Shown: in pieces, positions 28,010 to 37,861 of the stretch
Layout of the letters: each line of letters opens with the position of its first letter
How positions within the stretch are numbered: the stretch's first letter is position 1
From: Escherichia phage ECML-4
Length of the DNA stretch: 64,000 nt
Sequence record: JX128257
Direction: 5' to 3' (one strand)
Translations under genes and position numbers: made by a program
The notes under the pieces: generated by a model
The model's database searches: none
What the model saw: only the letters and a program-made list of their open reading frames with translations
Told to the model about the DNA's origin: nothing

Positions 28010-29119
28010 TTAAAACAAACGTTTGTAAGTGCGACCATTGTACTGCATATGGCCTAATATGAAAATTGCGGTAAACGGAACACAACCTAATAAAACGACG
28101 ATAATCACTTCCCATGTCTTGAGGTCACGCCATTTCAGATACTCCATTTCCTTCATTTCAACACGGTTATAGCCTTTGCTGATATTGACTGCAACTTCTT
28201 GGAATACTGATATCCCCATGGGTTTGCCAGTCAATGAAAGACCGTTTCGGGAATGAAGTTCCATGTTATTCATCCCATCAGCAAATGACGTGGATTTACC
28301 CCAATTGATTTTCATATCCTTCGATATGTCAGTAACCACAATGACATCGTTCTTTTTACCACCAGACCATGCATATAGCAGCCCCTGAAAATATTCCACA
28401 GGCTGGCCAGAAGTCACTACCCACACGATATTGACCTGACGTGATGCCCCCAATGTTTTCAAAGTGTTGTTCAGATAATCATTCCAATAATCAACGGGAA
28501 TATCCATCCCTGACATATTCAGAACACGAGTCACCCGATAATAATCATACACCCTTGGATATGACGGGATATGGTCTTTGAACTTCTCAGCGAATTGTTG
28601 GTCAGATTTGGAGAATAAAGAATCCTTGTTCCCTAGAACATAGTTCATATATGCATGTTCACGCGCTGCAGGTTCTCCGATTTTAACTTGCGCCCAACGC
28701 GGGGGCTCTGTAGTACCCTGACGATCAATACGGTCAATGCTCAGATCACCGACGGATGTTAATACGTCCCAATCAACGTCATAAGAGTGCTCATAGCACG
28801 TGCTGCAATGACGCGTTTGTGTACAAGATCGGTTATTTCCTGAACCAGAGCAAGAAGTTGTGTAATAGCACATACATTCATAAGAATGGCTACAACCCAC
28901 CTTATTTCGTTGCTTGTCAGTAACGTATCCATTCAAAATTTCAACATCTCCCGAACTACCCAGGGAAAATGCAGCGTATGCTCCCGCCTGGATAAGACAG
29001 GATAATACAACCACTATCGCAGTAGCAATTAGCGTTTCTTTTGGTTCATGGGTTTTGCGATGGTAAACCACGAACAATATGGCTAAAATAATAGGGACCA
29101 CAAACAGAAGGTAAATCAT
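28010..29119 (-). CDS. membrane protein (two N-terminal TM helices, Cys-rich ectodomain, C-terminal TM)
   Basis: 369 aa; hydrophobic helices at both termini; Cys cluster (CSHSYECMCYYTTSCSG...CTQTRHCSTC). Confidence 0.45.
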   Translation of the reverse strand: MIYLLFVVPIILAILFVVYHRKTHEPKETLIATAIVVVLSCLIQAGAYAAFSLGSSGDVEILNGYVTDKQRNKVGCSHSYECMCYYTTSCSGSGNNRSCTQTRHCSTCYEHSYDVDWDVLTSVGDLSIDRIDRQGTTEPPRWAQVKIGEPAAREHAYMNYVLGNKDSLFSKSDQQFAEKFKDHIPSYPRVYDYYRVTRVLNMSGMDIPVDYWNDYLNNTLKTLGASRQVNIVWVVTSGQPVEYFQGLLYAWSGGKKNDVIVVTDISKDMKINWGKSTSFADGMNNMELHSRNGLSLTGKPMGISVFQEVAVNISKGYNRVEMKEMEYLKWRDLKTWEVIIVVLLGCVPFTAIFILGHMQYNGRTYKRLF

Positions 29120-31803: not shown

Positions 31804-32718
31804 CTACGCCTTACGCATTAGCCCCAGAAGGGACACGGATGAGGTCTTTGGTTCTTCCTTGGCGACGGCCTTGTTTTTAGTTTTGGATGCCTTCTGCGGC
31901 TTCTCAGGCACTCTGTGAGCCAAAGGATCCTGACCGCCGACTTCACGCGTCATCGGATTGGTTTCGCAATAGCCGTAGAAGTCTTTCGACATCAGATTGT
32001 TAGCGCGGCAAACTGTGCCAAGCTGATGATAGATAGCATTACCCACCACCCACAACGGGGCGTCGAACGGCAACATAGCCAATTCGCTATCATTCCCAGT
32101 CTTGAATTCTTGGGTGTTCGTAGCCGTTTGGTGGTACAAAACGTCTTGCCCACTGTAATCATCCACGGCAACATTCCAGCCAAGCGCCAGCATTTCAGCC
32201 TTGGACTTCTCGAACTCCTTGGAGTAAGATTCGTTGCGCGACCAGCCGGAATCCCCCGCTTCTTTACCAGAGCGTCCACGGATGCGGGCATCGTACTGAT
32301 AGCGGTCTGGATATGCAAAGTACAGCAGCGCCAAAGAATCAATCGGATAGTTCTTGAACATCCATTCAGGACGCCACTTGTCCGACAGCATCAGGGGTTC
32401 GCCCTCACACACCAGGGTATATCCCTGAGCCAGCCAACCCTTGACGAGGTCGCGAGCAATATCCCCAGAGCCTGTGGCAGCATGAATGGCGTCCATAGAG
32501 GTCCAAGACGCCAGGCCGGATTTATTGGACACTGTGTATTGGCCGACGAAGATTAACTTCAGCTCTTCAAATTTCAGGCCGAAGGGGCGCGTCTTATCCC
32601 CAACAGTGTACGACAATTCAGTCGGCTTCAGCTTAGTGCGGAGCCACTCGATGAACTGTACGACACGAGTGCCTTTACCCGTGCCGCTGGTTCCTTTGAT
32701 TACGATGATCTTTGCCAT
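31804..32718 (-). CDS. P-loop nucleotide kinase-like protein
   Basis: N-terminal IVIKGTSGTGKGT, an NMP-kinase-style G-x-G-K-G-T P-loop; 304 aa. Confidence 0.5.
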   Translation of the reverse strand: MAKIIVIKGTSGTGKGTRVVQFIEWLRTKLKPTELSYTVGDKTRPFGLKFEELKLIFVGQYTVSNKSGLASWTSMDAIHAATGSGDIARDLVKGWLAQGYTLVCEGEPLMLSDKWRPEWMFKNYPIDSLALLYFAYPDRYQYDARIRGRSGKEAGDSGWSRNESYSKEFEKSKAEMLALGWNVAVDDYSGQDVLYHQTATNTQEFKTGNDSELAMLPFDAPLWVVGNAIYHQLGTVCRANNLMSKDFYGYCETNPMTREVGGQDPLAHRVPEKPQKASKTKNKAVAKEEPKTSSVSLLGLMRKA

Positions 32719-33023
32719 TATGCAGCATCCTCAATGCGCCAACTCACTCCACCCAACCAAGGTGCCCAAAACACGGCAACTTGCGGATGACCATTCTCAA
32801 CAAACTTCACTTTATACTGGTCATCAAAGTTATAGAAAATTTCGTCGTCATCAGGTGCCATACCGTTTTCAATCAGAACTCGTTTTAATTCCAACGCTGC
32901 GCCAACGGAAGTTGGTGGATTCTGATTACGGATGAAGTTGTTTACATGGATAATGATACCATCCATATCACTGTCACCGGAACGCTTGTCAGGGCTTTCT
33001 ACAACTTTATTTTGTTCTTGCAC
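32718..33023 (-). CDS. hypothetical protein
   Basis: 101 aa ORF, 1-nt overlap. Confidence 0.35.
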   Translation of the reverse strand: MQEQNKVVESPDKRSGDSDMDGIIIHVNNFIRNQNPPTSVGAALELKRVLIENGMAPDDDEIFYNFDDQYKVKFVENGHPQVAVFWAPWLGGVSWRIEDAA

Positions 33024-33032
33024 GATGTGCTC

Positions 33033-33875
33033 CTATCGGACATATTGATAATGAGAAACCAGGCGATTCACCACTTCATCGAGGTTACGATTTAAGAAGT
33101 CAAAGTGGTTTTGGCCTTCTACATGCTTAATATAAAGCATATCCTCGCAATTCGAAAGATCCAGTTTTTCATAATTGCCCTGAGGGACGAAGATGACGAA
33201 GATGTTATTCAGGGCACACGGCTCAACATACTTCGGATTGTCGTCGATCAGGACATCGCCAGCAAGCAGATGCTTTTCATCCGTGCTCACGAACCCATTA
33301 ATCAACGATTCAAAGTGATGGTATATGAACTGACGCTTGCTGCGTTCGTGTTCCGGTTCGCATTTTGTAACTGCCACCATTTCCACTTGCTCAAACTTCT
33401 GAAGGAGAGCGGCCTTTAAATTCGTAAGGAATTCAACAGCCCCTGGCAGTGGTGACATTCTGGAATACAGATCAGGCATACGCCACCAATCCATCGGATC
33501 ACGTCCTGTTGGCGAATCCATCCACTGACCAGCAACGAATACACGGCGCGTTAACCAGGCCGGATGCGCGCGTTCACGCATGAGGATCGCCAGATCACCA
33601 GCGTGTGACATATAACACTCTTTGGTGATTGGTTGAAATTCAGATGGGTAGTCGTGACATCCCATATTTTCCGCAGCGGCTTTAGAATTAGAAATATTGA
33701 ACCATTCAACCCACGGCGATAGGGAATCAACCAGAGTCAAATCCACATCCACCAGAACGCGATATAACCCGCCAATTTTAGAACATGCGTCATACAGACC
33801 AACGTGATTATTCATCAGATTTCTCCACATTGTCATAACCCGTTGCGGTGCATTGTTCTTCAGTGCAATCGGCAT
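33033..33875 (-). CDS. HAD-superfamily hydrolase (5'(3')-deoxyribonucleotidase-like)
   Basis: HAD motif I in LVDVDLTLVDS (DxDxT), late DVLIDD; start probably an internal Met because the ORF 5' end overlaps the upstream gene. Confidence 0.5.
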   Translation of the reverse strand: MPIALKNNAPQRVMTMWRNLMNNHVGLYDACSKIGGLYRVLVDVDLTLVDSLSPWVEWFNISNSKAAAENMGCHDYPSEFQPITKECYMSHAGDLAILMRERAHPAWLTRRVFVAGQWMDSPTGRDPMDWWRMPDLYSRMSPLPGAVEFLTNLKAALLQKFEQVEMVAVTKCEPEHERSKRQFIYHHFESLINGFVSTDEKHLLAGDVLIDDNPKYVEPCALNNIFVIFVPQGNYEKLDLSNCEDMLYIKHVEGQNHFDFLNRNLDEVVNRLVSHYQYVR

Positions 33876-34170
33876 ACAGAACCACAGAAGATTCCTTCAC
33901 GTAAGTGGTACAGTGATAGGTTTCATCTTCCTGGATGGAATCATCATAATTGCAAACAGTTTGCAACGGACCAGGAGTGGTGTTGTCCAAAGCTGCATGT
34001 GCCTTGATGGTGTCTTCCATCTTATTCACCGCTTGCTGATTGGTGAACGTCGGCGCATCGAGGTCAACAGTAGACGCAACGTCCAGAAGGGTAGAGCATG
34101 CAGTGGTAGAGAAAGCCAGAGCACACACCAGAAGAATCTTATTGAGTTTCATAACAATACCTGTTGTCAA
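33808..34170 (-). CDS. putative secreted/lipoprotein
   Basis: signal-peptide-like MKLNKILLVCALAFSTTACSTLL with Cys after the hydrophobic core; several further Cys. Confidence 0.4.
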   Translation of the reverse strand: MTTGIVMKLNKILLVCALAFSTTACSTLLDVASTVDLDAPTFTNQQAVNKMEDTIKAHAALDNTTPGPLQTVCNYDDSIQEDETYHCTTYVKESSVVLYADCTEEQCTATGYDNVEKSDE

Positions 34171-34212
34171 AGGGATAACAGGGGGAATTATATCCCCCTT
34201 TGTTTTATTGAA

Positions 34213-37209
34213 TCAACCTTTCTTGCCCATCATGGACAACAGATTAACTCGACGTTTGTGAGACCAACCAACCACGTCTAGAATAGACTGAATCGGCTCT
34301 ATGAAGGTCTTTTCAAACGTGGTGTGGTAATCTACCCACTTATCCAGCCCCAACTCCGGAGGGAGGAAGTCAGGGAAGGCTATGCGGTCGTTCCCCACAG
34401 GGTTCCCAGGTTTCAGGTTAATGATTTTAACCTTATCGCCAGATTCTATCGGCGGGAGACCGAGGTCTTCATGCTTGTCTATCAGCTTGTTGTACATAAT
34501 ACAAGCCTTGGCAGCAAAGTGTGTGCCACTGATATAATTTCCGTTGCCGTCTAACCACTTCTCAATATCACTAACGCCAGAGGCTTGAGCAATATCATCC
34601 ACGGTTAATTCCATATATTCCTTCTTATAACCCGCGATCAATTCCTGAACTTCAGCCTCCGTCCCCAGCAGAACTTTCTCATAGCATTTAACCAGACGCT
34701 CACGACACCATTCCGGCGTTGTAGATTTACGCGCTTCCAGACCTTTGAATTTTATCTTTGGCTTCTCATACTTGATGCCTTCGCTATCGTATACTGCCAT
34801 GCAATACATCTTCTTGGCTCGCCATACAGCAGACGATGCGATGACCTCACGTTCCCAGACCATGCGCTGCTCAAACCCGTTCATGGTATTACACAACAAC
34901 TGCGCCCATTCACTGGTTTTTGGCTGGTAATTCTCTTTGATCCATTGGTCAATGTTATCAACGAGTTTGTGATGATCCTTTTCTTCAGGCCACAATTGCT
35001 TGACCAGACGTTCAATGCAAATGTAGTTGGAGTCAGTATCACCCGCGATAACAAAATCCTGACCAGTAGTGCCGCAAAGTTTGTTCAGATAATCATCGGT
35101 GTGGCGTTTGTTCCATTTGTTGATCAGCTGGCCGGAAGTGGTGATTGCTTCAGCGATGTTGATGTTGAAGTATTCTTTAAACCAGACGTTGGAGATTGCG
35201 CCATAACCTGCGTTCATCAAGATCTTCAGACCTTGTTGTAACGTGTCTTGAGCAACCCCCAGATCTTCCCACTTGTGCATGACTTCAGTCAGGTGATCAA
35301 GATCGATGTGCTTGTGTTCTTCATACCATTCAGGATCGTAGAAACGAGACTTCATGGCGGATTCAAGGTGGAAATCACCTTTAGACATTTCCTTACACCA
35401 ACCAGCCCATTGCTCATACTTCAGGCCAGTTGCTTTCTCTCCTTTACGGTCAGCGTATATGCCTCGCATAATTTCGGAAAGGAAGGACATCTTCTCATTA
35501 CTGAAGAACTGAACGTTCGGGGTAAACGAAACGTTATATCGGCGTAGTGTTTCAAAATGGAATTCGCCCAGCGCGACCAATTCATCAACAACTTGTATGC
35601 GTTCATCAATAGCACGCTGCAACTTGTCGTGAAGATTTTTGAGATGACGACGTTTATTCATCGGCGTTGTCATATCATTCATCGCTTTGGTCAATTCCTC
35701 ACACATGGCCTCAATAATATCACGGCGGGTGTGCTTATCAGAAACGATAGTCTCTGGACCAAGGTTGTATTGCTGTATGATGTGGGGATACAGGGAGTTT
35801 AAGTCCTCAGAGAAGACCCAGAAATATATCCCTGGTGCAACCTCCATGACATATGCGCCTTCAAAATCTGTTGGCCCATCATAGACGCGCTGGATTTTCG
35901 GGACAATCCCCTTCTCATAAAGACGATAATAACACATCGCCAGCCACGGCGCTACAGTGCCGAGACCGTCTTCATAGTTGGATTTAGTGCGATAAGCCAA
36001 TACAAACATCAGCTGTATCAAACGCAGTTTTTGTTCTAAGCGCCACACCAGCTTGACGTCTTTGATACCATATCGCGTATGCTTGCAATAATCATTGAAA
36101 TAAAGGTCATACAATGATTTGCTTTCACTATAATCCAACTTCTTCTCACCGAGTTCACAATAAGCGATCCAGTCCAGTGAGTATTTTTCACGGGTGGTGT
36201 AAGTGTGTTTCTTGTACACTTGCATGTAGTCCATCATTGGACAACCCACAAACTGATAAGACGTGACGTCGCCTTTACGGTCTTTGATGAAACGTTTCTT
36301 CAGTTTACCCCAAGGACTGAGACGTTGGGCTTCAGATTCACCAAGAACCTGCGTAATTCGTTCAACCAAATAGGGGCTATCGAACGTTTCAATGTTCCAC
36401 CCAGTCCAACCGTCAAATTGACGCTGCGACCAGTAATCCAAGAAGGCGCGAAGCAGATCTTGTTCCGTCGTATATTCTTTATATTCAACCTCAAGACCGC
36501 CGACTTCTTCATCATTGGGGTCATATTTGAATTTATGGCGATCCTTGGAACACGGCATGCCCCAGACATAGAATTTATTGGTATTCATATCTTGGAGCTG
36601 TATCAGCGTAATAGGGAACGCCGCATTCATGTTCTGTGTGATTTTACCGTTACTGTCAATTATAGGGAATTGGTCAGTCACGTTGTTGGAAATAAAGGAA
36701 CCAGGGAAATGCTCCCGAACGAAATCATGGTTGGCCAGTACTTGCTTATGGAAACGACGAACCCGCGCCTCGCTGCCTTTAAACGTGTGAGATTCAATCG
36801 TTGCGTGTGGGAATGGACCTTTAGTCATTTCTCCGTCACGCCAACCAGCCGAGAACACTTCGATATCCACGTTGGCGATGTGGATATTTGAATAATCAGG
36901 TGTGATCATCCCAGGAAAACTATGGGCGATGAATTGATATGCATAATCCGTTTGTCCATACACCGCAGCCCCTTCGACCTCCTTGTACTCCTCAAGATAG
37001 TTGTCAGCGTCGCGCATTGATGCAAACTTTTTAGACACCAACGGTTCGTTGAGGAGGCCAATCTTTTCAACTTTGGAATAATCAGCTGTGGGTAAATACA
37101 AGGTGGGTTCGAATTTCTTACGCAACATGCGGCGATTGCCGTTGTCGTCTGCGATACGAATCAGAAGGTCGTTACCCTGTCGGGCAACGTTCGTATAGAA
37201 AACAGTCAT
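34213..37209 (-). CDS. family B DNA polymerase (T4 gp43-like)
   Basis: Exo I NVDIEVF, motif A DLNSLYPHI, motif C AGDTDS; start set to ATG 37209 (MTVFYTN) preceded by GGAGA SD. Confidence 0.9.
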   Translation of the reverse strand: MTVFYTNVARQGNDLLIRIADDNGNRRMLRKKFEPTLYLPTADYSKVEKIGLLNEPLVSKKFASMRDADNYLEEYKEVEGAAVYGQTDYAYQFIAHSFPGMITPDYSNIHIANVDIEVFSAGWRDGEMTKGPFPHATIESHTFKGSEARVRRFHKQVLANHDFVREHFPGSFISNNVTDQFPIIDSNGKITQNMNAAFPITLIQLQDMNTNKFYVWGMPCSKDRHKFKYDPNDEEVGGLEVEYKEYTTEQDLLRAFLDYWSQRQFDGWTGWNIETFDSPYLVERITQVLGESEAQRLSPWGKLKKRFIKDRKGDVTSYQFVGCPMMDYMQVYKKHTYTTREKYSLDWIAYCELGEKKLDYSESKSLYDLYFNDYCKHTRYGIKDVKLVWRLEQKLRLIQLMFVLAYRTKSNYEDGLGTVAPWLAMCYYRLYEKGIVPKIQRVYDGPTDFEGAYVMEVAPGIYFWVFSEDLNSLYPHIIQQYNLGPETIVSDKHTRRDIIEAMCEELTKAMNDMTTPMNKRRHLKNLHDKLQRAIDERIQVVDELVALGEFHFETLRRYNVSFTPNVQFFSNEKMSFLSEIMRGIYADRKGEKATGLKYEQWAGWCKEMSKGDFHLESAMKSRFYDPEWYEEHKHIDLDHLTEVMHKWEDLGVAQDTLQQGLKILMNAGYGAISNVWFKEYFNINIAEAITTSGQLINKWNKRHTDDYLNKLCGTTGQDFVIAGDTDSNYICIERLVKQLWPEEKDHHKLVDNIDQWIKENYQPKTSEWAQLLCNTMNGFEQRMVWEREVIASSAVWRAKKMYCMAVYDSEGIKYEKPKIKFKGLEARKSTTPEWCRERLVKCYEKVLLGTEAEVQELIAGYKKEYMELTVDDIAQASGVSDIEKWLDGNGNYISGTHFAAKACIMYNKLIDKHEDLGLPPIESGDKVKIINLKPGNPVGNDRIAFPDFLPPELGLDKWVDYHTTFEKTFIEPIQSILDVVGWSHKRRVNLLSMMGKKG

Positions 37210-37270
37210 TGTTTGTCTCCGGTTAACCGTGCCGTCAGCACGTCCCCGTAATTTAACCGAGGAACGTTCA

Positions 37271-37861
37271 ATGACCAAGGAGTTTAAAATGGCAATCCCC
37301 TTTGTGAGCATGATTCCAGGGGCGCTAAAGCAACTCTGGAATCTTGGGACTGATTTGGTGCAATATAAGCGGGAAATTGTTCAGGCTAAACACGATGTTA
37401 AACTGGAGGCAATAAAGTCTTCTTCAGAATGGGAACTTTCTAAGATTACCGAAGTCGGCGGATCTTGGAAAGATGAATTCTGGACAATCGTTTTGGCTGT
37501 TCCCGCTATCCTTGTTATGATCGCTCCGGTTGTGGAACTTCTAATGTTCCCCACCGAGTATCATAAAGGGGATTTCATCAAAGCAGTAATTGATGGTATG
37601 CAAGCCCTTGAAACAGCGCCTGATTGGTATACTGCTTCGCTATTGACAGCAATTAGTGCATCATTCGGTATCAAGGGGTACAACCATTACAAAAGCAATA
37701 GCCGGAAGGCGCAAGCTGTGGATGCTCTCAAACAGTTTGGGGTCAAAGTGGTTAACAAAGATCCCACTGTTGTTACTCAGTCGGGTTCTCCCGATCTTGA
37801 GTCTGCTCCCCCAGCTGGGTCTACTGCGACCTCTGGTGCGTGGCCTGATCTGAAGAAATAA
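37271..37861 (+). CDS. membrane protein
   Basis: start at ATG 37271 (GAGGA SD); TM helix FWTIVLAVPAILVMIAPVVELLMF; terminator at 37868. Confidence 0.45.
   Translation: MTKEFKMAIPFVSMIPGALKQLWNLGTDLVQYKREIVQAKHDVKLEAIKSSSEWELSKITEVGGSWKDEFWTIVLAVPAILVMIAPVVELLMFPTEYHKGDFIKAVIDGMQALETAPDWYTASLLTAISASFGIKGYNHYKSNSRKAQAVDALKQFGVKVVNKDPTVVTQSGSPDLESAPPAGSTATSGAWPDLKK

Follow-up and report, generated by a model that had tools for sequence, protein, structure and literature searches.

A conserved gene for a predicted lipoprotein between the DNA polymerase and NT5C-like nucleotidase genes of Vi01-like phages

Results

The locus and its genes

Positions 33000-34300 of the window (the whole 64-kb stretch of DNA that was analysed) match Salmonella phage Vi01 (Kuttervirus, Ackermannviridae) at 100% identity, and many sister phages show more than 99% over the same interval; the Vi01 gene names are used here. 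Vi01_193, the subject of this analysis, sits between Vi01_190, the gene of a T4 gp43-like DNA polymerase, and Vi01_194, whose product matches the Pfam family NT5C at 6.8e-08 and carries a DVDLT motif near its N-terminus (Table 1). The RefSeq product name of Vi01_193 is "putative uncharacterised protein", while its homologues in several GenBank records already bear the label "putative (conserved) lipoprotein". The protein matches Pfam DUF7292 (PF23964) at 1.6e-53, with 180 bits against a cutoff of 27; residues 1-113 align with positions 1-111 of the 112-position profile, which makes the protein a full-length family member. It also matches the PHROG family phrog_3748 at 3.8e-64. Vi01_193 is a genuine, already catalogued gene, and both its family and its lipoprotein label are already public. 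It does not differ from the DUF7292/phrog_3748 family, which has no assigned function, and the literature searched gave nothing usable on either DUF7292 or Vi01_193. The NCBIfam and PADLOC libraries gave no match to the protein, and a profile search of PDB sequences returned nothing.

Table 1 Features of the Vi01_193 locus, in coordinates of the window
Feature	Position	Strand	Description
CDS Vi01_193 (YP_004327562)	33808..34152	minus	114 aa; 345 nt; DUF7292/phrog_3748; predicted lipoprotein precursor; RefSeq coordinates
Signal peptide, residues 1-18 (predicted)	34099..34152	minus	MKLNK n-region, ILLVCALAF h-region, lipobox STTA/C (slash, cleavage site)
Lipobox T-T-A-C, residues 16-19	34096..34107	minus	Cys19 is the predicted lipidation/cleavage site; +2 is Ser
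Mature domain (predicted)	33811..34098	minus	96 aa; pI about 4.05, net charge -15; C67, C81, C96, C101
Shine-Dalgarno-like AGGT	34159..34162	minus	-10..-7, 6 nt upstream of ATG 34152; RBS annotated there in phage Marshall
ATGAATAA	33808..33815	minus	NT5C-like start codon overlapping the Vi01_193 stop codon by 8 nt
GGAG Shine-Dalgarno of the NT5C-like gene	33823..33826	minus	Inside the 3' end of Vi01_193; RBS annotated there in Marshall
Downstream gene Vi01_194	33033..33815	minus	NT5C-like 5'(3')-deoxyribonucleotidase, HAD superfamily, 260 aa; RefSeq coordinates
Upstream gene Vi01_190	34213..37209	minus	T4 gp43-like family B DNA polymerase, 998 aa as annotated
Sigma-70-like promoter candidate TTGATT-N18-TATAAT	34187..34216	minus	10/12 consensus positions; straddles the polymerase stop codon
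Stem-loop AGGGGGA-UAUAAU-UCCCCCU	34180..34199	minus	Between the polymerase stop and the lipoprotein start

Start codon of Vi01_193 and its overlap with the NT5C-like gene

An earlier note on this DNA, made from the sequence alone, had placed a putative lipoprotein at 33808-34170 without giving a strand. The reading frame exists and lies on the minus strand, where the ORF list gives it 120 aa from TTG 34170; its 5' end, on the other hand, is probably 18 nt too long. The N-terminus quoted for the protein, MKLNKILLVCALAFSTTAC, is present exactly in the ORF product and begins at ATG 34152, which is most likely the start of Vi01_193 in preference to the TTG. The ATGAAA at this start is invariant in all seven genera aligned, and an AGGT- or GAGGT-like motif is kept at the Shine-Dalgarno position in five of the seven. 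The ATG is the annotated start in RefSeq Vi01 and in phage Marshall; the TTG is used in a single record, that of AR2819. As a candidate start, TTG 34170 was rejected: it has no Shine-Dalgarno sequence and falls within a CCCTTTGACAA motif that is missing from distant relatives. The mature product would be identical with either start.

The same note described an overlap of the lipoprotein with the HAD hydrolase gene and concluded that one of the two starts needs correction. The overlap itself is real, but it is large (68 nt) only on the longest ORF of the NT5C-like gene, which starts at 33875; from the annotated and homology-supported start of Vi01_194, ATG 33815 (M-N-N-H-V-G...), it amounts to the 8 nt of ATGAATAA. 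In Menlow, LIMEstone1, phi1_146041, Bue1 and one metagenomic relative, the NT5C frame is closed by a stop codon 0-9 nt upstream of the homologous ATG, and the overlap between the lipoprotein and NT5C genes of these five, where there is one, is a 4-nt ATGA. Upstream starts of the NT5C-like gene were considered and discarded, as the closed frame of the relatives offers no alternative start there. With a stop codon this close before the homologous ATG in relatives, no public start needs correcting, and what was read as a conflict is an ordinary start/stop overlap. Overlaps of this kind are usually associated with translational coupling, and we infer that translation of Vi01_193 is coupled to that of the NT5C-like gene.

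The export signal and the lipobox

Vi01_193 matches the PROSITE rule PS51257, which asks for a positive charge within the first seven residues and for an uncharged hydrophobic stretch before a lipobox whose Cys stands at position 15-35; here it is Cys19. The rule was run on every possible start of all ORFs of at least 40 aa in the six frames. No other real gene in the 64 kb gives a match that starts from ATG, and the lipobox is therefore no chance occurrence. The sister genome AR2819 was scanned over about 150 kb; besides the DUF7292 gene, one real gene in it has a lipobox, namely gp117 (263 aa).

The signal was followed through a set of 31 DUF7292 sequences that reaches down to 35-40% identity. 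The n-region, MKLNK with a charge of +2 in Vi01_193, carries a charge of +1 to +3 in 31/31 sequences, and each of them has a hydrophobic h-region. The lipobox cysteine is invariant in the 23 close homologues (23/23) and present in 29 of the 31 sequences overall; in these 29 lipobox-bearing sequences the residue at +2 is Ser or Ala, and never Asp. The residue at -3 is Thr in Vi01, so that the strict [LVI] is lacking and the site stands at the permissive edge of the consensus, and many relatives have L or M there (SLSAC, SLSGC, SLTAC). Across the 31 sequences, the signal peptide drifts while the cysteine at +1 stays fixed, and in some Kutterviruses the signal peptide has been replaced outright in front of a nearly identical mature part. 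The two members without a lipobox carry classical SPase-I-type signals, and the domain would therefore be periplasmic in every lineage.

The conservation of the n-region, h-region and lipobox, with a sequence that drifts around a constant Cys+1, bears out the proposal of the earlier note that this is an exported protein, and lipidation is probable. We regard it as very likely that Vi01_193 is both exported and lipidated. The +2 rule of the Lol pathway is the established basis for predicting the sorting of lipoproteins to the outer membrane. Because the +2 residue is Ser or Ala and not Asp, outer-membrane sorting is predicted, and Vi01_193 would be a periplasm-facing lipoprotein of that membrane.

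The mature domain

The mature domains of the family are acidic, with a pI of 4.05-4.5 and a net charge of -7 to -16 over the 31 sequences, and the four cysteines downstream of the lipobox (C67, C81, C96 and C101) are invariant in 31/31. AlphaFold (AF2) was used to model the full-length protein (pLDDT 74) and also the mature part by itself (pLDDT 79). In each of the two models, one helix (residues 38-55) is packed on a four-stranded antiparallel sheet (strands 63-70, 78-85, 90-96 and 101-108), with a pLDDT of 80-90 over the domain. The modelled topology sets C67 beside C81 across two adjacent antiparallel strands, and it has C96 and C101 on either side of a turn. The domain probably holds two disulfides, C67/C81 and C96/C101, which would fit an oxidising compartment.

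A structure search of the PDB with both models gave no significant match (best E 0.2-0.9), and a search of BFVD with the full-length model gave nothing significant except the DUF7292 family's own member. The resemblance to monellin/cystatin and PepSY-type folds is weak and non-significant. SAUGI, a DNA-mimic inhibitor of uracil-DNA glycosylase, was the top match of the first search at E 0.21; it was gone with the cleaner model and was set aside as noise.

Distribution and synteny

By tblastn, the DUF7292 gene is found in 276 phage records, all with Ackermannviridae-sized genomes, and a polymerase at least 60% identical is found in 277. The near equality of the two counts makes DUF7292 a core gene of that polymerase clade; for Ackermannviridae with hosts among the Enterobacterales, Vi01_193 belongs to the genuine core genes. 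The hosts of these phages are Salmonella, Klebsiella, Escherichia, Dickeya, Serratia, Shigella, Erwinia, Enterobacter and Yersinia. When 1.84 billion representative proteins were searched with an HMM, no more than six clusters came up, all six of which match the DUF7292 profile; the family is therefore narrow and has no annotated distant relative. For two of the six clusters contigs were inspected, and both have the same synteny as Vi01.

The gene order in Vi01 is polymerase, Vi01_193, the NT5C-like gene, DUF7254 and the 5-hmdU DNA kinase. It is kept in phiMAM1, in Bue1 and in the two metagenomic lineages that diverge most; phiMAM1 and one metagenomic lineage have one to three extra small genes inserted into it. 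The loci inspected show DUF7292 immediately after the polymerase in six genera and in one metagenomic lineage; in another lineage, two extra small genes stand between the two. The divergence of the DUF7292 protein roughly tracks that of the neighbouring nucleotidase, but the pattern is mosaic. In Dickeya phage LIMEstone1 the protein is 90% identical to that of Vi01 and the polymerase 81%; in Klebsiella phages the protein is 58-69% identical and the polymerase 84%. As this comparison of Dickeya and Klebsiella phages shows, the divergence does not follow host phylogeny.

Expression signals

Vi01_193, the polymerase and the 5-hmdU DNA kinase share one operon direction. The sigma-70-like promoter candidate (Table 1) is among the top-scoring sites in 7.5 kb and is conserved in Kuttervirus, Taipeivirus and Limestonevirus; promoter-like sites in the region are, all the same, not enriched over shuffled sequence (16 found against 12.7 +/- 3.6 expected). 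The TATAAT of the candidate is at the same time the loop of a GC-rich hairpin. Five genera are predicted to have a hairpin at the corresponding site; the stem sequences differ, and the z-scores range from -1.2 to -3.2. The end of gene 43 in RB49 carries a comparable annotation, a "hypothetical early promoter". The T4-type late promoter TATAAATA has one copy in the window, which is no more than chance, and none near Vi01_193. Transcriptomes of Ackermannviridae were not found in the literature searched. As the promoter sites are unenriched and no transcriptome was found, the timing is drawn only from the operon context, from which we infer early or middle expression of Vi01_193.

Discussion

A tentative model for the role of Vi01_193

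The sequence of Vi01_193 and the analogues discussed below suggest a model in which an early outer-membrane lipoprotein changes the envelope of the infected cell, for example by excluding superinfecting phage. We offer this model as a whole tentatively, and we would place it somewhat short of an even chance. The gene would be transcribed with the DNA polymerase or just downstream of it, in the block of replication and thymidine-hypermodification genes. Its 114-aa precursor would be exported via Sec and receive its lipid on Cys19; signal peptidase II would then cleave it, and the Lol machinery would sort the lipoprotein to the inner leaflet of the outer membrane. A very acidic domain of about 95 residues, probably with two disulfides, would thereby be displayed into the periplasm. 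An envelope altered in this way could not be infected productively by phage of the same kind; alternatively, the benefit may be that progeny are not lost to cells already infected and to debris. The target may be a conserved component that is exposed to the periplasm, either a receptor protein of the outer membrane or, on the side of the incoming phage, its tail tip or tail lysozyme. A receptor target is hypothetical, as the known primary receptors of the phage family of Vi01 are variable surface polysaccharides and no conserved protein (PMC11721090). Further points against the model are that the protein's divergence is out of step with host phylogeny, that the gene lies far from those for receptor binding, and that the Vi01 lipobox has Thr at -3.

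An exclusion or immunity function as such, which is argued by analogy, seems to us possible although doubtful. The most far-reaching form of the proposal would see in DUF7292 a new envelope "immunity" lipoprotein family that all Ackermannviridae of enterobacteria have in common. Made early from the slot behind the polymerase, which in T4 holds imm.1 and imm, its members would block productive superinfection via a conserved periplasm-exposed target (an outer-membrane protein, or the tail tip or tail lysozyme of phage that arrive later), independently of the variable polysaccharide receptors; we consider it rather unlikely. A less likely variant of this form would see in DUF7292 the missing outer-membrane lysis factor of the "spanin-less" phages.

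Alternative readings of the locus

The alternative that survives best keeps the lipoprotein in the outer membrane and gives it another role than exclusion. Here the acidic, cystatin-like alpha+beta domain would act as a periplasmic binder or inhibitor that neutralises a host envelope enzyme or sensor; the candidates would be a protease, a muramidase, a periplasmic nuclease or a stress-sensing lipoprotein pathway, and the envelope would be kept stable or silent until lysis. The low pI and strongly negative charge found throughout the family are in keeping with such a binder, as is the helix-on-sheet topology with its weak, non-significant likeness to monellin/cystatin and PepSY-type folds, and the conservation of the protein across phages of at least six host genera fits a conserved host target. 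This reading is opposed by the outcome of the structure searches, in which no fold match was significant, and by the lack of a PADLOC or NCBIfam match and of a candidate target. We give it a small chance of being right.

A role of DUF7292 in lysis is unlikely. In its explicit form, this reading takes Vi01_193 for an outer-membrane lysis component, either an o-spanin or an unconventional outer-membrane disruptor, that would be the missing factor of the "spanin-less" Vi01-like phages. It takes its support from the survey of Kongari et al. 2018, which found no spanins in Vi01, SFP10 and Maynard (PMC6139136), from Vi01_115c, which is annotated as an "Rz-like spanin" and has no lipobox, and from the fact that DUF7292 is one of only two real lipobox genes in the roughly 150 kb of sister genome. 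Against these points, Vi01_193 has no adjacent, overlapping or embedded i-spanin gene, and it lies in the replication module with early/middle genes, away from the lysis genes. In Marshall the survey assigned an unusual separated pair (PMC6139136); the homologues of this pair in Vi01, Vi01_116c and Vi01_115c, form the only annotated spanin-like pair, about 70 kb from Vi01_193. Its mature part is a well-folded globular domain and not a short proline-rich tail, the lipid anchor has been lost in two lineages, and the curators of Marshall and Maynard annotated a "conserved lipoprotein" and made no spanin call. Taken together, we regard an outer-membrane lysis component as very improbable. The suggestion of the earlier note that the protein may be a spanin component likewise finds no support, given neighbours that encode a DNA polymerase and an NT5C-like nucleotidase, no i-spanin gene next to it, and a mature part that folds as an alpha+beta domain.

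The genomic neighbourhood lends itself to a further reading, in which the protein would be a cytoplasmic accessory of the nucleotide or DNA-hypermodification pathway, its hydrophobic N-terminus would be no signal peptide and its four cysteines would bind zinc. The strict synteny with the polymerase, the NT5C-like gene, DUF7254 and the 5-hmdU kinase speaks for it, and so does the overlap of the Vi01_193 stop codon with the NT5C start codon. Downstream of the DUF7292 gene lie the genes of the kinase (gp243, 5-hmdU DNA kinase) and of the transferase (gp247, serine:DNA transferase), which are experimentally characterised thymidine hypermodification enzymes (PMC8989533). However, 5-NeOmdU was reconstituted in vitro with gp67, gp160, gp226, gp243 and gp247, and the DUF7292 protein is not among them (PMC8989533). 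Vibrio phage K382, whose polymerase is 49.6% identical, keeps the NT5C-like gene, the kinase and the transferase while DUF7292 is absent; the DUF7292 protein is therefore not part of the hypermodification pathway. The tripartite signal in all 31 sequences, with the drift that is typical of signal peptides, and the Cys+1 that is invariant among the close homologues also contradict a cytoplasmic location. We find this reading scarcely credible. That Vi01_193 is a chance ORF and no gene, for which nothing but its small size can be said, has practically no probability and is already refuted by conservation, given the 180-bit Pfam match, the presence in 276 phage records, the residues that stay invariant down to 35-40% identity and the RBS.

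Significance of a family-wide envelope lipoprotein

Members of the Ackermannviridae, among them Vi01, CBA120 and LIMEstone, serve in typing, in biocontrol and in therapy cocktails. If the model of an exclusion or immunity lipoprotein is true, a protein of this kind that is shared family-wide would affect the mutual interference of phages in such cocktails, and DUF7292 would point to a conserved envelope step of infection beyond the recognition of polysaccharides. As it stands, Vi01_193 is an annotated hypothetical gene whose start-codon conflict does not exist, and it matters only if a function is established.

Comparison with known phage envelope proteins

Neither by sequence nor by fold did the searches relate Vi01_193 to Llp, Cor, Imm, Imm.1, Sp or any solved structure. 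The o-spanins (the Rz1 family and its analogues) share with Vi01_193 that they are phage proteins with an outer-membrane lipoprotein signal; they differ from it in that Vi01_193 is without a partner i-spanin, lies in the replication module and has a globular periplasmic domain.

The nearest functional analogue is Llp of T5, which belongs with Cor of T1/phi80 to the outer-membrane lipoproteins that act in superinfection exclusion. Llp is a small, disulfide-bonded, periplasm-facing outer-membrane lipoprotein that is made early and blocks the receptor (PMC9586334). Like Llp and Cor, Vi01_193 would be a small phage lipoprotein whose cysteine-containing domain would face the periplasm, and its context is predicted to be early. 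Membership of the Llp/Cor families was searched in Pfam and PHROG at E <= 0.1, and only DUF7292 and phrog_3748 came up. The mature domain measures 95 aa in Vi01_193 against about 60 in Llp/Cor. The Llp and Cor genes adjoin the receptor-binding or tail-tip gene (PMC9586334), whereas Vi01_193 has the polymerase gene as its neighbour, and about 18 kb separate it from the start of the tailspike genes, which lie on the other strand. In contrast with the phages of Llp and Cor, no protein receptor is known for Vi01-like phages. As the phage is lytic, the role of Vi01_193 would be one of "lytic conversion" (PMC9586334).

The position of the gene recalls T4, in which the order is 43, imm.1, imm (superinfection immunity), 42 and beta-gt. 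T4 Imm is a two-helix inner-membrane protein and in this is unlike Vi01_193. T4 Imm.1, a predicted lipoprotein for which the searches gave no functional annotation or paper, belongs to DUF5481, has no match to DUF7292 and is unrelated to Vi01_193 in sequence. Homology between the two was tried with hhalign and rejected, the probability being 9% and only the signal peptides being aligned. The slot after the polymerase holds no lipoprotein in RB49 and KMI9. What T4 and Vi01 have in common is the slot itself, in which the polymerase is followed by a small envelope-targeted protein (by prediction in Vi01) and then by DNA-modification genes. The likeness extends to the design of the protein, as T4 Imm.1 begins with MKIAILVIALGLAGC, a textbook lipobox (LAGC), and has four further cysteines, and Vi01_193 likewise combines a lipobox with four cysteines.

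Mosaic history of the predicted lipoprotein gene

Identity comparisons across phage genera set the DUF7292 family, to which the predicted lipoprotein Vi01_193 belongs, apart from the polymerase encoded next to it. Between Vi01 and the Dickeya phage LIMEstone1 (L009) DUF7292 is 90% identical and the polymerase 81%, whereas in the Klebsiella phages (L008 and L010) DUF7292 is 58-69% identical to that of Vi01 and the polymerase 84%. The history of this gene is therefore mosaic and departs from host and phage phylogeny. Within some Kutterviruses (rows P0004, P0008 and P0009 of alignment A1, which holds the DUF7292 homologues) the signal peptide (MKLKKDVLFHKIMQVFAVTTMAFSLSAC) is longer than, and wholly different from, the one encoded at window 34099-34152, while the mature domain is nearly identical; the combination suggests that the signal-peptide segment has been swapped out in these phages. 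In Vibrio phage K382 (L016), whose polymerase (49.6% identical) is the nearest relative outside the clade, DUF7292 is absent between the polymerase and NT5C-like genes, which adjoin (L016:7018-7083), and the kinase and transferase genes are retained.

Features considered, with record labels (window coordinates unless a locus is named)
Feature	Coordinates	Strand	Label or remark
Vi01_203	28010-29119	(-)	RefSeq gene label 'host lysis protein'; 'putative membrane protein' in sister phage AR2819
Vi01_196	31804-32718	(-)	RefSeq 'guanylate kinase'; AR2819 'putative homing endonuclease'
Vi01_195 (DUF7254)	32718-33023	(-)	'putative thioredoxin' in some records
GC-rich hairpin	34180-34216	(-)	directly 3' of polymerase stop codon; TATAAT-like hexamer in loop
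Polymerase, longest ORF	34213-37311	(-)	1032 aa, start 37311
Vi01_115c	L014:1665-2671 (Vi01 77664-78670)		outside window; 'Rz-like spanin'
T4 imm.1	L015:2637-3014	(-)	directly after gene 43, before imm

Neighboring genes and the intergenic hairpin

The 1032-aa polymerase reading frame is longest-ORF inflation, as with the nucleotidase gene; all annotations start the polymerase at 37209 (998 aa). The hairpin that follows its stop codon is present in five genera, with stems that differ in sequence (GGGGGA/UCCCCC, GGGGGC/GCCCCC, AGUGGGG/CCCCACU and GGGCUGUAG.../...CUACAGCC). No U-run accompanies it on the (-) strand. The element may act as a promoter, as a structure at which the mRNA ends or is processed, or in both ways.

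Contrary to both of its record labels, Vi01_196 is the 5-hmdU DNA kinase gp243, an activity shown experimentally (PMC8989533); it matches Pfam HMUD2 at 5.6e-169. Vi01_195 has no Pfam match beyond DUF7254 itself. In the Ackermannviridae loci that were inspected, this family is found alongside the nucleotidase and the kinase, with tblastn signals weak or undetected in the most divergent loci.

Comparison with proteins annotated for lysis and with T4 Imm.1

The N-terminus of the Vi01_115c product is signal-like and lacks a lipobox, and the adjoining Vi01_116c resembles a secreted protein, not an i-spanin anchored in the membrane. Vi01 was classed as spanin-less by Kongari et al. (2018), who nevertheless accepted the near-identical pair of phage Marshall (PMC6139136). 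Vi01_203 carries an N-terminal hydrophobic segment. Because the protein satisfies the lipobox rule only when translation is taken to begin at an internal TTG or GTG, this segment is probably a membrane anchor and not the signal of a lipoprotein.

The N-terminus of T4 Imm.1, MKIAILVIALGLAGC, is a textbook lipoprotein signal, and the protein has four further cysteines; its RefSeq name, 'iduronate sulfatase', is a misnomer. Imm.1 belongs to a family (DUF5481) unrelated to DUF7292, but its gene occupies the same position as the DUF7292 gene, directly behind that of the polymerase.
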